DNA of 64,000 nucleotides from Picochlorum sp. SENEW3 (taxonomy: Eukaryota). This document shows positions 56,638 to 64,000 of this stretch, piece after piece (within the stretch, counting starts at the first letter, position 1; the number at the start of each line of letters is the position of its first letter). The stretch spans positions 806,001 through 870,000 of the forward strand of contig CP120455.1 in assembly GCA_034226945.1 (NCBI GenBank), written 5' to 3'. The notes beneath the pieces were generated by a model that was not told the origin of the DNA, did not search any database, and saw nothing but the letters and a program-made list of their open reading frames with translations. The translations under genes and the position numbers were made by a program.

Positions 56638-57037
56638 AAGAAATATCGACCCTAATGTTGGCTGCCACTAGCAGATGAACCATGTTTATCGAGTCTAGTG
56701 TATCGGAAAAGGAGGCCACTTACATATGTTAGGGTCATGCACAATATTGTGATCGTGGTTATATATATATACAACATATGTATGTGATATATTAAATACA
56801 TGGTCATAGTAGATACAACATCACACCATCAACGGTGATGTGATGTAACGTAACGTAATTGCATTGGCCAATGTCCCATGGGACACGTGCACCTGCAGGT
56901 GATGTCTATCGTGACATGATCTGCAGATTCCGATGACGCGAGATGCGTGCTCAATGCTGACAACGCCCCACCTTGCAGATGATTCTTTATGCATTATTCA
57001 TTGTATGTTCAGTATGCATATTGTCAGAACGTAGACA

Positions 57038-57514
57038 ATGGACGCAAGACAAGGTCGAGGAAACGGGTATGCCCCGGAGTCTTGGAAAACCCTCTGTGAG
57101 CTCGAAAGGACCCTCAGCGTAAAGCTTGTTTCTGCTGAGGATCAGAAAGGTATGCATATGGTTTGTCATGGTTGTTTTTAAAGAAGCATGGGCAAAGTGA
57201 GGCTTCAGCGACCCGTGATTCTGCCCTGCGGAGGGTAAAATACGTTCAGTTTCTAGATATCTGATTGTTCATATGGATTCCTATTTTTACATTATTAATA
57301 TATATATATATATATATAGGGACGCTTTTGTCTTCTGGAGAGAACGCATCTACTCTTGGCGCCGACGAAGCACGTGGAGGTACCGGGGTAGACTCGCGCT
57401 TCGATGTCTTTCTGGATGCCGCCCAGGAATTGGACAGAAGGGGAAAGTCTACTGCTGGAGAAGGTGGGAACTTGATCTCCACTCAGGAGGATGGGATGAC
57501 TGAGAAGGAGCGAA
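57038..57514 (+). pseudogene. 5' part of a bZIP transcription factor gene, interrupted by the CACTA element (exons 57038-57149 and 57320-57514)
   Basis: MDARQGRG..EDQKG|TLLSSG..GMTEKER; the reading frame continues exactly on the far side of the element once one TSD copy is removed. Confidence 0.75.
57298..57318 (+). repeat. (AT)n microsatellite immediately before an intron 3' AG
   Basis: About 10 AT units directly followed by the acceptor of the bZIP intron. Confidence 0.9.
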
Positions 57515-57530
57515 CACTAGCGTCAGGCTG

Positions 57531-57634
57531 GATCCTTCACCGGTCCTTCACTGGTCCATTCGGGGTCGCCCGCCAAACGGGGCGAAGGACCGGTGACGTT
57601 ACATTTCGTCACCCATGGACCAGTGAAGGATCGG
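57531..57634. repeat. Left subterminal inverted/direct repeat array (TCCTTCAC[CT]GG motif)
   Basis: ccggtccttcactggtccat (57540-57559) is the reverse complement of atggaccagtgaaggatcgg (57615-57634) with 1 mismatch; tcaccggtccttc and gaaggaccggtga form a second, perfect pair. Confidence 0.9.
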
Positions 57635-58076
57635 TTCCTCCTCGCTCTCACTACCGCCCCTATTAAAATTATTTCTGGTATTCATTTATAATATTACACT
57701 CAATAGTATATATTAATGTCACAGACACAAATATGAGCAGCATTTGCCAGGGCTACTTCACAGATACCTTGTATCACCTCCAGTTGTCCATACTCCCAGT
57801 TCTGAAATTTCCAACCTGCAGGCTATCAGCTGCAAAGAATCCTATTATTTCTGCAAGCCCGTTACCATCCGACACCTTTAACTTATTTACAGCCACTCCA
57901 ATTTCCCTAAAGACTCAGCCTGCACTTAGTACACCTTTTTCCCAGCCCTAGCAGCCTCCACTTCACTACAGTACTTGAGCTTTGGTGGGTTTCCCCACCG
58001 AACTCTCGTTACATGTGATAAATAGAATGTTATATGGTTTTATACTACATTTCAGCTCAAAAGAACGACAGAAGAA

Positions 58077-59469
58077 TCACACTAGCGTGATATCGGTGTT
58101 CACTGGGGTGTTCTCACTCCTTTCTTTTCTTCTACATCTCTCAGCTCTATCTTTTGCGCTAGAAATGTATCTTCGACCATCTTGTTGCCATGCCTCTACA
58201 TTTGAACATCCTGCCGGTCTTCGCTTCCTGTTTCTTGGCTGCTTGAGCTTCTTGATTTCATCTTTTAGAGATCGTATTTCCTCATTCTTCTTTTTGATCA
58301 CTTGTTGTAAACCAGAATCATCCTTCTCCTTGGCAGCCATTTCTCTAAGCGATTTCACGTCGTCTTGTAAAGAAGTTATTTTCCTAAGCAAACTTGCTTG
58401 TTTAGGGACATCGAAAGCTGATGCATTTGCATGCAGTTGGGAGTCAAGTATTGCATTTGCATGGTCATCATCCACTTGACACATCCTACTAGGCTGTTCT
58501 CGAAGGTCTTCATCATCGCTGCTTTCTATGCCTGGCGTGTAATCATTCCTATTGGAAACGGTTCCTCTTGCTGCAGAAGCCTGGATGATGTTTGATGTCA
58601 ACCCCATGCTGCATACATTGGAAGCATCAGGTGATGGTCTCGACAACCATTGCATTACTTCCTTCCAGTCGTCTCCTGGTGGGACTAACCCTGCATAGGC
58701 TCCGTTGTTGTCCCTTATATACCGCCCAAAGTTGTCCCAGTAGACATCAGCAGATCCTCTTAGTGCAGCTACAACTTGGCTTCGCAACTTGCCCAACCGA
58801 AGGTTGGATGTTGTGTTGTTCGTATAGGTCGTCACGTACTTGAAGAATTTGGTCAAGTCGGTAATTTTTCTCCTTCTGCCTTCCTTCTGAATTTCATAAA
58901 GGACTCGCACCCGGCCAGGTTCCCAAAAGTATTTATCCACAATACCCTTTCGTCCCCTTGGCCTCTCTAGAGCAAAGGCGCCGTAAACTTCCCCATATTC
59001 TTCCTGATCCTTGTGAATTCTTGGCCAATACTGGTACAACATGCCCAATATCCATTTCTTGAAGTCGGCGTCTTGGGGGCTATCACTCTGACGAGTTGAT
59101 ATGGCAGTTGAGCCATGAAACCCGCTGGTGCCCTGGGTCTCTAGGCAATCTTCTGCAGTAAATATAATAGTAATATGAGAAATATCATCGCTTTCTGATC
59201 TCTTCTGCAGTCTGCAAGATAGACAATTCGATAGGGTCCGAAGGCCAACCGTTTTCTCTTCGCTGCACTTTTCCACATTCAGGTACAAGCGAATTTTTTT
59301 TCCCTTTCTCACACTCTAATTTTTTAATTGTTTCCTCCAACTCTTTCAGGATCATATCGGACGTCCAACCCTCGTAAACTGTGCACAACTCGTGCACGTC
59401 GGTGCCATCTGGACTCCGCAAACGAACAGCCGTCTCCAATCCAGGACTGAGGAAAACCTCTTCGCTCAT
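58077..59469 (-). CDS. Transposon-borne accessory protein of unknown family (about 440 aa; exons 59469-59269 and 59204-58077)
   Basis: A 64-nt gtgcag..ctgcag intron joins ORFs 59185-59469 and 58077-59312 in frame; coiled coil and basic NLS-like KQPRNRKRR near the C-terminus; lies inside the TIRs. Confidence 0.7.
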
Positions 59470-59741
59470 ATTTACTAATTTGATTTAATAAATAAATATC
59501 TGGTAATTTGTTCTGGTATCAGTCATGCGGGATGTCGATGGATGTATTGTTGACAATGATTGGTAGTTATTCGTCAGTTGCAGTTACATGCACCTTATCA
59601 TCCCCATGTTGAAGACGTCTCGTTGGAAGATTGGCATAACCATATCTATATGATATATTTATGTACAAAGATTTGATCTTTCATGAAAAATCTTGTCTGA
59701 TCGTATCTGGATAACCTATTTGTTCTTGAAAGTTGGTTGCC

Positions 59742-62725
59742 ATGACTCAGGACCTTTGCCACAACTGTCGCAGGACGATGCCATCCTCTCGCAGTGGGAA
59801 AGCACATCACATTCAAGGTAAATGCAAGTCGATTTTCACAGGGGGAGCTCACTGTAGGTGATGCACCTCCCATGATAGCCACGGAGCAGTTGAGTCCAGA
59901 TACAGCAGAAGTGCCTACACCCGTGCAGAATTCAGGTGAAGATGCTGCAGAGGATGGCACTCCTTTTGAATATTACAATACTTACACCTCTATTCCCAAG
60001 AAAAACACAGTCGAGTATTACGTCAGCATGATGAACGAGCCTGTTTTCACTGGTGCAAACCAAACGTTGAAGGAATACTTGCAGTCATCATTTGCACTCT
60101 ATGTCTCAAGTGGTATGGGGAAAGCAACATTCGAAGAGCTATTACAACGAGATCGAGTCTTATTGGAGAATTTTGATCCCATCATCCCCAAATCCCTGTA
60201 TCTCGTGAGAGAATCCCTTGGCATTCCCAAGGCTGACCAGGTTGAGCATCACATTTGTACTTGCCTGCAGTACATATTCGACCGTCTTCCCAAGGAGCAA
60301 TGGATCTCACACAAGGATGATAAGTGTAAAGGTTGTGAGAAGCCTCGATTCAACGTAGTGAGAAATTTTGATGGTTCTCTCAGGGTCACGCCCAGGAAGG
60401 TACTCATCTCTTGTCAAATAGTATTTACTATCCATGAGACCTATCGATTCTGATCTTATTTGCCTGCTCTGCAGAAGTTTTATGCATTCAATCTTGAAAG
60501 TCAAATCAAGCGTCTCTTCCGTATACCTGACTTTGCGCAGAAAAGAGGGTCGCAAAGGGAGCAGAACTTAGTCTACCAGTCCGAGCACTACGAATGGTTA
60601 GTAGGAGCCACCCGTGGGGGGGTGGCACAGGTCAGCAATAGTGTGTATAGTGTTGGGTTTGATTGGTGTCAGGCTACTAAATCAAAAGAGCATTCTATGG
60701 GAGTTGTAAGCATGCGATGCGAGGACTTGCCAGCAGATCTAGCCCACAAGGACAGCATGACAGTGCCATTGCTCTACTTACCGGGCCCCAAAGAGCCAAC
60801 CTGTCTGAATGCGTTGTTCAATTTGATCGCTGCACAATTTACTAAGGCAGCAGAGTCTGGTATTCAAGTGAGCTATATTAACAGCGAAGGCAAGCAAGTG
60901 GAAATACTCCACAAACCGTATTGGGTATTTATCCACTGTGATTCCCCTGCACGAAGCAAATTAGGTTGCTTCAATGGAGCTAATGCTACCTTTTGCTGCC
61001 CATACTGCCGTCATCCTTCAGTTCGAGTTGAAAAAGCATTGAAGCCCTTGGGCTACCTCGAGCCTGTCTCTTACTTGCATTATATATGTGTGACACAAAA
61101 AGAGGAAGAGCAACGACTTCTGACCTACCAAATGGGTGTCAGAAGACAGCGATTGTCCCTAGAAAACATGGAACACCGGGAGAAGCTGTTTATGTACTTG
61201 ATCAAGAAAGGGAGATATCAGCACGAGGAGATCAGGAAAGAGTTGGGCATCAATGGGAAATGTGACCTGTTTGGGAAAGTGACCACACTACACCGTGTGC
61301 ATGCCTTTCTCCTTCCCTTTTACCATCTCATTTTTCTTGGAGTACTCAAAACGTTTTTCACTCTTCTTGTGAAGAAGGACCCGAAAAAGAAGGCTAGGAA
61401 GAAGAGAAATAGAACAAAGGACAGGGATGAAGATGGATCAGATACAAATGAAGTTACGATCTTCCGCCTGAGCAAGCTCAAGGAATTGAATAATTGTATC
61501 ATCTCAACATCTGACCTGGGAAGGCCACCGAGATGTTTATCAAATATTGCGGCATTCCTTGTCGAAGACGCGAAGAACCTTTGGGAGTTTCAAGGCACTC
61601 TCCTTATGCACCCAGCAGTAACAAGTAAAGTCCTGGGTCTCGAAGACGGAGTGCTTCCACCACTAGCAAAAGAGGCATGGGGATATTTAAGAAGAGGAAT
61701 TGACTTTTTTATGGATCAGGACACAGTGTCTCTTGACAAGCATGGCCGCACAACACTGGCTGCAAAGGAAGCACAAGAGAGCCTGCTGGAGTTTGCCAAG
61801 ATATGCGAAAAGGTATGTGGAGATGCATGTGCCTCATTACGCATTGCGCCTCCTTTCAAAATTTAAACATCGTAATTTGCAGAATTTTATGCCAGTGTGC
61901 ACGCAAAACCTGCACATCCTTATCTGCAGACTATTAGATCAGGAGAAGGCAACAGGAAAAGCCAAGTTCATGAATGAGTTGCACATTGAGAGATCGCTTC
62001 AATTCTTTAAGAAGAATGCCACAGGAAAAGCAGAACCAGAAAAGGTTGCATTACAGAAACTGTTGGACCACTACTACCTGGAGGAGTGCTGTGGCAAGTC
62101 ATCTGCTTCCAGCATCACCCAGGTATCTCAGAGCAAGAGCAGCCCTTTCATTGCATCGGATGAGGATTTCTTTACAGGCCCAACAAAGGCCACGGAGAAA
62201 CAGATGGAACGCATTCAGGCGTTCTGTCGACGTTCCAACATCAGGGCACATACATCAGATTGCAAAGTTTACAAAGTTGCTGAACTACACCGAGATGGCA
62301 AGATTGAGAGAGTAAATTCATCTTTGTACAACAGGGAGCGGACACGACAGTCAAATACTGTGCTTGTTGACATGAATTCATCGGGCTCATCGCACCACCT
62401 TGGAGTTGGCATTGTGAAATTTTTCTTTTCTGTAGAAGTCGATGGGACAGAGACAATGGCAGCAGCCATCCAAATATATCGTGATGACCAGGTTGAATTT
62501 CATCATGATCACGACTTTGGCACAGTAATTGAAATCAAAATCAATCGGGACCACAAGCTGATACGTATTCGATGCCTTCCCTTGGAGAAGATACTGACAA
62601 AGGTCGTTCGTTTAAACTGCAGTGACCTGGACAAGAACGGGAATCCCACCGAGGAAACACAAGTCAAATATAGCGACTTTGTTGTACCAAAATCTCAAAA
62701 GTGGCTCAGACATATCGATTCGTAG
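59742..62725 (+). CDS. EnSpm/CACTA DDE transposase (Transposase_21/Tnp2-like); introns 60400-60474 and 61813-61882; first exon tentative
   Basis: HHICTC..CKGCEKPRF; VGFDWCQ (D1); SMGVV.MRCEDLP; LPGPKEP; HCDSPARSKLG..G.NAT.CCPYC (D2); YHLIFLGVLK; TQNLH..G..MNELHIER (E). Confidence 0.88.
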
Positions 62726-63078
62726 ACGTGAGATGCTCAACTTCGGTCAAGATGTGACATCAATGCCTTGGAAATGCTCCTCACACCAAGAGCCATGTTT
62801 GGGCCATATATCTTGTCATATGATATAATTATCATTTAATATATGTTATATGACGCTTGGTGCTTCCCTGACGCAGCAAACTGGTCAACTCGGAGAAGGC
62901 GAATTGCGAGCAGAGTGGACCGACCCGTTTCTTGACAAAACTCATATTTCAGGCCAAACTGGCCTCGGTTATACATTATTATAGTAAAATTGTAAATATT
63001 TATGGCACCAAGGGGTCGTTTTGGTCCACTTGAAATTTCACGAAGTATCAATGAAGGAACCTCGTGACGCTAGTGGAA

Positions 63079-64000
63079 GGCGGTTGGAGGCTACCAGAGC
63101 CAAAAACAGAAGGGTGAGTCTCCATCTTTTGGCGAATTGTTTTCATATGATGGCTCTAATTGGGTTGTTCTCATGCGATTTATAATCATGTATGTAGGCC
63201 CAGAAGAGATTTCGGGAGAAAACGAAGACGAACATGCTGAAAATGGAAGCAGATGTCAACAAGGGTCTGAAAGAGATTGAGTTTCTCCGACACCAGAATC
63301 GCAAATTGTTCCAGGATAGGCTGATTTTGACGTTCTCTACTATGTTGAGAAAAGAACTCGTGATAACATATACGGATAAAAACAATATCTGGAAATTTCG
63401 GCTGCCAGAGGGGCTGGCAGTTATGTCTGGAATGGAGAGTGATTCGTCATCAGTATGTGTTTCCACAACATTGGATGAGATGAGGAAAGCAAAAGTTTCC
63501 TTGCAAGAATCCATCGAAGCCGGCGGTGATTCATACAAGGATTCTTTGTTGGCGATTCTCGGGAAATTTTGGAGCGTGGCAGAACTCGATGCCATGAAAT
63601 TTGGTGAGCTTTTGCAGTTGGGCACAGCATGCAACTTCACCACCAAGGCAGCTTGGACTGCAATCATGTCAAGGGTTTCAAGCATCGACAGGGAGTTCAT
63701 GTTTAAGATGTACAACAATTTTAAGAAAGGGCAGGAGAAGTTATCAGAGTACTTGTCTTCAACATTGTCCCATTTGGAGGATTCCTCACCAGAGTCAGTT
63801 GAAAGTTCCGTGATGTCTGTACCGAAGATCAAGACCTCTCTTGAACTTTCCCGGTTAAATCAGGTGTCTCTGGAATTCTTTGCTCTGTACTGTGAGGCAT
63901 ATGTCCATCTGCAGCAAAGGAGCAGCATGAAGGATTTAGCCCACATCTGGGCAGAGTCCCCAACAGTGATCCCTGATGTGCTGAGTCTCCTCATTGCTCT
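63079..64000 (+). pseudogene. 3' part of the interrupted bZIP gene (exon 63079-63113, intron 63114-63197, exon 63198 to beyond 64000)
   Basis: RRLEATRAKNRR|AQKRFREKTKTNMLKMEADVNKGLKEIEFLRHQNRKLFQDRLIL gives an N-x7-R-x9-zipper pattern; frame open to the window end (hence missing from the ORF track). Confidence 0.8.

Follow-up and report, generated by a model that had tools for sequence, protein, structure and literature searches.

We analysed a 64,000-nucleotide stretch of Picochlorum sp. SENEW3 (contig CP120455.1, positions 806,001 to 870,000; hereafter the window, in whose coordinates all positions are given) that carries near its right end a 5,561-bp transposon, 57515-63075, lodged in a coding exon of a bZIP-like gene and containing a spliced transposase gene on the + strand and a second open reading frame, ORF2, on the − strand. 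The element ends in perfect 11-bp terminal inverted repeats (TIRs) that start CACTA, the left one, CACTAGCGTCA, at 57515-57525 (+ strand) and the right one, its reverse complement, at 63065-63075 (− strand). Outside them stands the target-site duplication (TSD) GAA, without strand, at 57512-57514 on the left and 63076-63078 on the right, and the end sequences read CACTAGCG... (left) and ...CGCTAGTG (right). An earlier note made from the sequence alone had claimed these repeats with GAA on both sides, as well as an imperfect extension of the repeats to about 25 bp; we confirmed the coordinates in the sequence, and the extension, which reaches about 57539 on the left, has 21 of 25 aligned columns identical. 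Exact copies of the 11-mer are found at two places in the window, both of them element ends, with ~0.03 exact matches expected by chance (own arithmetic for the 64-kb window), and with up to one mismatch the count rises to 4, against 0.64 ± 0.82 expected, a number that none of 100 shuffles reached. One of the one-mismatch copies, CACTAGCGTGA at 58080-58090 (+ strand), lies at the stop codon of ORF2 in left-end orientation; it is probably a coincidence, with a chance of ~9% by our own estimate.

Four contig sets were compared with the window, namely the DNA sets X1, X14 and X15 (X15 was listed as possible RNA and behaved as DNA) and X16, an oligo-dT RNA library. X1 contains 99% of the sampled window words and may be the source organism, and X14 is labelled as an organism different from X1. 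Contigs diverge from the window exactly at 57515 in X1 and X15, which marks the left boundary, and exactly after 63075 in X1 and X14, which marks the right one. The 3-bp TSD of CMC EnSpm/CACTA elements is found as GAA here and as CAT at a copy in X1, and the paired CACTAGCGTCA ends show the CAC(TA)...(TA)GTG inverted termini of this group as worded in excerpts of PMC12730594. The G+C content of the element (0.435-0.470) is inside the range of the window.

The interrupted gene lies on the + strand, with its 5' part at 57038-57514 (exon 1, 57038-57149; intron, 57150-57319; exon 2 from 57320 to the insertion) and its 3' part at 63079-63998 (the rest of exon 2 to 63113; an 84-nt intron, 63114-63197; exon 3 from 63198, extending beyond the window). 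The 3' part encodes a bZIP-like basic region and zipper, and the insertion is in coding exon 2, just before the basic region; a bZIP-like regulator is thereby naturally disrupted in the sequenced strain. In silico removal of the element together with one GAA yields a 381-aa frame without a stop, which is identical in 363 of 385 aligned columns to the orthologue P0208 (385 aa), a protein that is uninterrupted across the site. We term the gene bZIP-like because P0208 scores below the cut-off for Pfam bZIP_2 (E 7.6e-4, 19.9 bits, cut-off 22.3); host exon 3 of the window alone gives E 0.056. An X16 RNA contig runs from a loose end at 57150 into the first letters of host exon 2, with the first intron spliced out.

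The empty site is present in X14, where a 4,960-nt contig joins 56810-57511 to 63076-63900 with 3 letters that fit either side. The 5,564 bp skipped correspond to the 5,561-bp element plus one GAA, and a single GAA is retained. An exact joint with one GAA and an open frame argues that the element never inserted there, rather than having been deleted, and the insertion postdates the split from a close relative that keeps the gene intact. An empty-site allele with a single GAA was the test by which the earlier note was prepared to be refuted, and its finding in a related organism, together with the open frame after virtual excision, bears out the proposal of a young insertion in an undecayed target gene. 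In X1, no joint of 57511 to 63076 was found, in a contig set that also has no cover of 56800-57510.

Furthermore, the element is recently mobile and differently placed in close relatives. In X1, one contig carries the element starting exactly at 57515, and a second copy is flanked as ...ACAT / element / CATGGG..., that is, with its own CAT TSD, in line with the earlier expectation that other copies would have the same boundaries and a 3-bp duplication of their own. X14 has a different right flank from 63076, and X15 has a different left flank ending at 57514. The word depth in X1 (123.6 for the 5,181-nt element contig, 58.8 for the junction contig and 61.9 for a 46-kb contig) fits two copies, word depth not being itself a copy number, and there appear to be about two full-length copies. 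Members of the ORF2 cluster at 90% identity include two NCBI proteins that lie on separate contigs of Picochlorum sp. SENEW3, single proteins of Picochlorum sp. BPE23 and of P. renovo, and further proteins without a name. Transposase variants on other contigs show 3-4 substitutions in 384-389 aa, and the protein variants are 99% identical, with open frames. A protein-profile scan and a terminal-repeat pattern scan of metagenome contigs returned no relatives, and a scan of viral contigs returned none either.

Relatives of the element that are diverged or carry internal deletions are also found in X1. One joint leads from 60004 to 62652 with 218 foreign letters between, further joints connect 62827 to 62875 and 62941 to 63001, and two variant 3' ends of the element are present. 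A loose end at 63051 belongs to a copy in a 46-kb contig, the right end of which stops after ...GTGACGC and is followed by a T tract, not by TAGTG. When the left flanks of the second X1 copy and of the X15 copy are compared over 30 letters, 13 of the 15 outer positions agree and 5 of the 15 element-adjacent ones. Both flanks hold in their outer 15 letters a single CCCTAAA, which we take to be one unit of the plant-type telomere repeat, and they represent either a single locus that has undergone an indel or two separate sites of a repeated sequence.

With respect to divergence, X14 differs from the window at 59 of 1,527 bases in the host flanks (3.9%, plus indels) and at 39 of 5,610 in the element (0.7%), X16 differs at 24 of 689 in the host flanks and 15 of 2,115 in the element, and X15 is ~0.5% different in both. 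Overall, the element copies are 0.5-0.9% different from the window. The comparison with the host flanks hints, for a small sample of flanks, that the copies share a more recent ancestor than their hosts. Because the copies are ~0.7% apart while host flanks are ~3.5-3.9% apart, we consider it conceivable, if rather unlikely, that the element is transposing at present and has passed from one Picochlorum lineage to another, horizontally or by introgression.

The transposase gene has three exons on the + strand. Exon 1 (59742-60399; 219 codons after removal of one G) encodes an N-terminal Cys/His-rich region; exon 2 (60475-61812; 446 aa) encodes the first and second catalytic Asp, a C(2)C motif and an insertion domain; and exon 3 (61883-62725; 280 aa plus the stop at 62723-62725) encodes an H-x3-C motif, the catalytic Glu and a C-terminal domain. 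Intron 1 (60400-60474; 75 nt, GTACTC...CTGCAG) and intron 2 (61813-61882; 70 nt, GTATGT...TTGCAG) have the same junctions in P0153 and P0164, and P0004 reads through intron 2, continuing with a homologous exon-3 motif. At full depth, X1, X14 and X15 each have one base fewer at 59841, in the G5 run 59841-59845 of the window, and one fewer at 59294, in the T8 run 59294-59301. Since three independent contig sets lack them, the extra G and T are probably homopolymer errors of the assembly. After removal of the G, the transposase starts at ATG 59742 and runs for 945 aa without a stop, and its N-terminus aligns with that of a sister protein, P0164 (964 aa; 538 of 969 aligned columns identical), which shares both exon junctions and the N-terminal Cys/His pattern. 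In the uncorrected window, the spliced frame is open for 902 aa from Met 59872, identical to the public model P0153. The unbroken spliced DDE transposase of the earlier note is therefore real in its splicing and, once corrected, in its open frame of 945 aa, but the frame from 59742 stops at codon 39 in the sequence as given. The sister family (P0002, P0164) is found on 3-6 kb contigs in other samples.

The family of the transposase was approached through its relatives. A word-indexed search returned four, at 99, 63, 44 and 33% identity, and a profile of five sequences matched 854 proteins at E <= 1e-3 among 1.84 billion. The relative at 63% identity, P0002, matches Pfam Transposase_21 at E 2.3e-5 and 24.2 bits, under the cut-off of 28.6. 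Among the 89 relatives scanned against Pfam, out of 150 listed profile matches, Transposase_21 is matched by 13 and no other family by any; P0053 (32.9 bits) and P0085 (29.7 bits) are above the cut-off, and exon 2 of the window aligns with P0053 by BLASTP over 402 columns (E 5e-22, 24% identity). Similarly, the 30 named neighbour clusters in the ESM Atlas comprise 15 with Transposase_21, 6 with Transposase_21 and DUF1258, 1 with DUF1258, 2 with Plavaka (on 34% of members) and 6 with no common family. These sequence matches argue for homology to Tnp2-type transposases by way of the relatives. In a quick tree, restricted to the 68 rows with at least 330 residues in reference columns (19 of 87 rows dropped), Transposase_21-matching rows are interspersed with the window's clade.

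The alignment behind this tree (n = 87) comprised a 518-aa part of P0153, P0164, P0004 and 84 of the 150 listed matches, chosen by length. Its catalytic triad is conserved (first Asp in 68/69 rows, second Asp in 84/85, Glu in 54/56), both Cys of the C(2)C motif are present in 85/85 aligned relatives, and the H-x3-C motif ~20 residues before the Glu has its His in 58/62 and its Cys in 60/66. An AlphaFold model of the 518-aa core (predicted local distance difference test, pLDDT, 92.8; predicted template modelling score, pTM, 0.92) gave Foldseek matches at E <= 1e-3 that are all RAG1, RAG1-like or Transib (45/45). The nearest solved folds are those of RAG1, RAG1-like protein and Transib, followed by P element transposase, with hAT far lower, so that the modelled catalytic core is predicted to have a RAG1/Transib-like fold, and the ranking agrees with the published CMC-Transib kinship. 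A search of PDB sequences with the transposase-family profile gave 0 matches at E <= 10.

Two other assignments were not borne out. PIF/Harbinger is presumably the other superfamily with a 3-bp TSD and two genes, these being a DDE_Tnp_4-type transposase and a Myb-like second protein; the window proteins and the 89 relatives show no DDE_Tnp_4-type or Myb-like match, and the fold is RAG1-like. For Plavaka, PF18759 is found in 0 of the 89 scanned relatives, and the termini are CACTA, not the TGT..ACA or CATCA..TGATG given in excerpts of PMC12730594.

ORF2, at 58077-59469 on the − strand, is a single frame of 463 aa after removal of one T of 59294-59301 and, thus corrected, agrees with P0207, a database protein, at all but 5 of 463 positions. 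The 272 bp between the gene starts (59470-59741) presumably serve the two divergent genes as a shared promoter. The structure model of ORF2 has a mean pLDDT of 36.9 and is confident only in C-terminal helices at ~356-409, where a coiled coil is predicted with confidence. Among PDB sequences ORF2 matches only DUO1 (E 0.35), and in the ESM Atlas its best score, 0.78, does not rise above chance; a GCR1_C-like cluster scoring 0.77 is no more than a lead. ORF2 shows no likeness to a second protein of the TnpA type (Transposase_24), which we take to define the plant En/Spm family. By its position and by analogy with two-gene CACTA elements, ORF2 may be an accessory protein that binds the element ends.

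The left subterminal region contains an imperfect palindrome (57531-57635) with TCCTTCA/TGAAGGA motifs, as observed from inverted pairs, motif counts and folding. A 21-nt inverted pair, 57539-57559/57615-57635, is 95% complementary, a second left-end pair of 13 nt is perfect, and the folding energy of 57515-57660, −40.4 kcal/mol (z −6.9), was equalled by none of 200 shuffled sequences. Of the 24 copies of the heptamer TCCTTCA in the whole 64-kb window, 4 lie in the two terminal 151-bp stretches, and these motifs are presumed to be protein-binding sites. The structured subterminal repeats of the earlier note are thus real, but mostly confined to the left end. Rfam and Tandem Repeats Finder gave no match on 56800-63900.

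With respect to expression, the cover of the element by X16 contigs is limited to the 3' portions of its two genes: 57520-59047 for ORF2 and the sequence downstream of it (57722-59047 being counted for ORF2), and 61961-62119 and 62277-62739 for the transposase gene. This 3'-biased cover, as expected from poly(A) RNA, is a hint of transcription. The element also exposes errors in public annotation. In the model P0153 (1,240 aa), the transposase is joined to the 3' exons of the interrupted gene: the model splices from just before the transposase stop to the segment 62877-62966, still within the element, and next to host exon 3; an X16 contig continues through the P0153 donor site to 62739. P0153 is a chimera, the public transposase model uses a later start, and the public ORF2 model P0005 bridges the frame break, at the homopolymer error, with an invented intron.

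At the level of Pfam matches, the remainder of the window is free of recognizable transposons, as the earlier note had maintained in calling this the only mobile element: among the 23 other open reading frames of at least 200 aa, 20 match non-transposon Pfam families, 3 have no match and 0 match a transposon family. The region 1-57000 is dense in housekeeping genes, among them those for DNA polymerase alpha subunit B, histidinol dehydrogenase, SPT16, an isoamylase, acyl-CoA oxidase and fructosamine kinase.

As for how the element is likely to move, the transposase, perhaps together with ORF2, would bind the CACTAGCGTCA repeats at both termini as well as the subterminal TCCTTCA motifs, and would pair the two ends. 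The element would then be cut out and inserted at a 3-bp staggered cut in the target, the repair of which would leave the 3-bp duplication. The assignment of proteins to motifs, the promoter and the excision chemistry are what we infer.

Overall, 57515-63075 is very probably an autonomous, EnSpm/CACTA-like class II transposon that moves by cut and paste, belongs to the CMC group and has two divergent genes. The assignment to CMC EnSpm with a Tnp2-type transposase made by the earlier note is supported, only indirectly as regards the transposase, by the termini, the TSD, the relatives, the Atlas neighbours and the fold, but the direct match to the Pfam Transposase_21 hidden Markov model that it had anticipated is absent for the window protein, which does not reach the curated cut-off. 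Several observations weigh against our reading. The transposase exons of the window do not match Transposase_21 (PF02992) even at E <= 10, nor does the full model P0153 at E <= 1, and the sole Pfam match of P0153 is DUF4218 at the exon 2/3 junction (E 0.05, 13.9 bits). Most relatives behave alike, 11 of the 13 Transposase_21 matches being under the Pfam cut-off and 76 of the 89 relatives matching nothing. The motif H-x3-C apparently stands where H(3-4)H is described for CMC, judged by the description in excerpts of PMC12730594. ORF2 matches no Pfam family at E <= 1 except for chance-level coiled-coil matches, and the relatives found for it are confined to its 90% cluster. In its uncorrected form the window has neither frame intact (the transposase breaks at codon 39 and ORF2 at codon 94), and this copy would be dead if the extra G and T were real rather than assembly errors. 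No X16 RNA contig crosses a transposase intron, 59170-61776 is without cover, and DNA in the X16 RNA library is a possibility. One X14 contig exits the element six bases inside the left end, at 57521 instead of 57515, and continues into 32 unrelated letters; in X14 the left 1.65 kb of the element has a word depth of 116.7 against ~62 for the remainder, and the two together may reflect a truncated or rearranged extra copy. Finally, neither a new jump nor an excision footprint was seen for an element that may still be moving today.

The absence of a direct Transposase_21 match and the many relatives that are under the cut-off or matchless would also suit a cut-and-paste element from a separate lineage of the wider CMC+Transib clade (Plavaka-, Lanisha-, Chapaev/Mirage-like or unnamed), as would the H-x3-C motif, the 2 Plavaka clusters and 1 DUF1258-only cluster among the 30 named in the Atlas, a tree without named reference sequences and the 'EnSpm-Plavaka' elements of the related trebouxiophyte Auxenochlorella (PMC12636532, in part). 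TSDs in the wider clade measure 2-5 bp. According to excerpts of PMC12730594, C(2)C and H(3-4)H are common to EnSpm, Mirage, Chapaev and Transib, and elements that combine CAC...GTG termini with a 3-bp TSD are filed as EnSpm, whereas Plavaka termini differ. As Transposase_21 is the sole Pfam family in the relatives, PF18759 is found in 0/89 and Transposase_21-matching rows mix with the window's clade in the quick tree, we regard a separate lineage as improbable.

We give still less weight to the idea that the insertion, although genuinely of EnSpm type, has lost its mobility, with the differences between strains reflecting old insertions sorted among lineages. The broken frames, the lack of any observed new event and the apparently only ~two full-length copies would be in keeping with it. 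On the other hand, the extra bases are absent at full depth in three contig sets, including X1, the joint at the empty site is precise and has one GAA and an uninterrupted frame, copies occupy different sites in different organisms, and they are 0.5-0.9% from the window, with open protein variants at 99% identity; an immobile element is thus very unlikely. It is almost inconceivable that the assembly created the insertion in the bZIP-like gene by placing a repeat at the wrong locus. X1 has no cover of 56800-57510, the left junction lacks a second witness, and the window does have homopolymer errors, but a 1,215-nt X1 contig spans the right junction (63046-63900) with 0 differences, and the flanks fit together, exact to the codon, as the halves of a single gene and carry a 3-bp TSD, which a misjoin would not yield. 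A recently mobile EnSpm/CACTA-like element thus remains our preferred explanation.

Such an element matters in several respects. Complete, of low copy number and differing in position between close relatives, it is a source of structural mutation in small, repeat-poor biotechnology genomes and a candidate endogenous tagging tool. Should it indeed be jumping now and have moved between lineages, it could serve as the first endogenous insertional mutagen for the industrial genus Picochlorum; the element would further represent a CMC lineage that has two genes, one of them for an orphan accessory protein, and a Cys replacing a zinc-binding His, and a bZIP-like regulator would be knocked out in the sequenced strain. 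It also adds a well-bounded algal family to a transposon clade without a solved structure of its own. We found no description of this element in the literature on Picochlorum transposons or green-algal CACTA elements; the repeat-class table of the SENEW3 genome paper (Table S4 of PMC11092101) may already list CMC/EnSpm. PMC11092101 describes Picochlorum genomes as repeat-poor, with DNA transposons at 0.35% of the SENEW3 nuclear genome, as bulk repeat figures only.

Compared to known systems, the Picochlorum element resembles plant En/Spm (CACTA) in its CACTA termini, 3-bp TSD, subterminal repeats, two genes and spliced DDE transposase, in Transposase_21 as the only Pfam family in its relatives and in a weak DUF4218 match at the equivalent place. 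Unlike in plant En/Spm, the transposase is below Pfam detection and has H-x3-C apparently in place of the described H(3-4)H, and ORF2 is without similarity to any known family. The two proteins of plant En/Spm are alternative splice products of one transcript, whereas the two genes of the Picochlorum element are divergent. With RAG1, ProtoRAG and Transib the element shares the DDE triad and the C(2)C motif, at a sequence identity of 9-13% only, and it differs from them in having no RAG2-like partner gene and a TSD of 3 bp; the TSD of Transib is 5 bp.

Closer parallels come from other green algae. The 'EnSpm-Plavaka' elements of Auxenochlorella are likewise cut-and-paste elements in a streamlined diploid trebouxiophyte, and are described in the excerpts of PMC12636532 as potentially active, with insertions that differ between haplotypes. 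The Picochlorum element is unlike them in its CACTA termini and in the lack of the Plavaka Pfam family from the 89 relatives. In Chlamydomonas reinhardtii, low-copy EnSpm elements land in coding sequence as well, and Tcr3, EnSpm-3_cRei and EnSpm-N3_cRei move in laboratory cultures, as stated in portions of 10.1101/2022.06.16.496473 and 10.1101/2022.05.23.493040. The host class differs, Picochlorum belonging to the Trebouxiophyceae, the elements were compared by description only, and movement was observed there whereas for the Picochlorum element we infer it. Mobile EnSpm elements are thus already known in other green algae, and the element described here is a new family of a known kind of transposon, plausibly an undescribed one.

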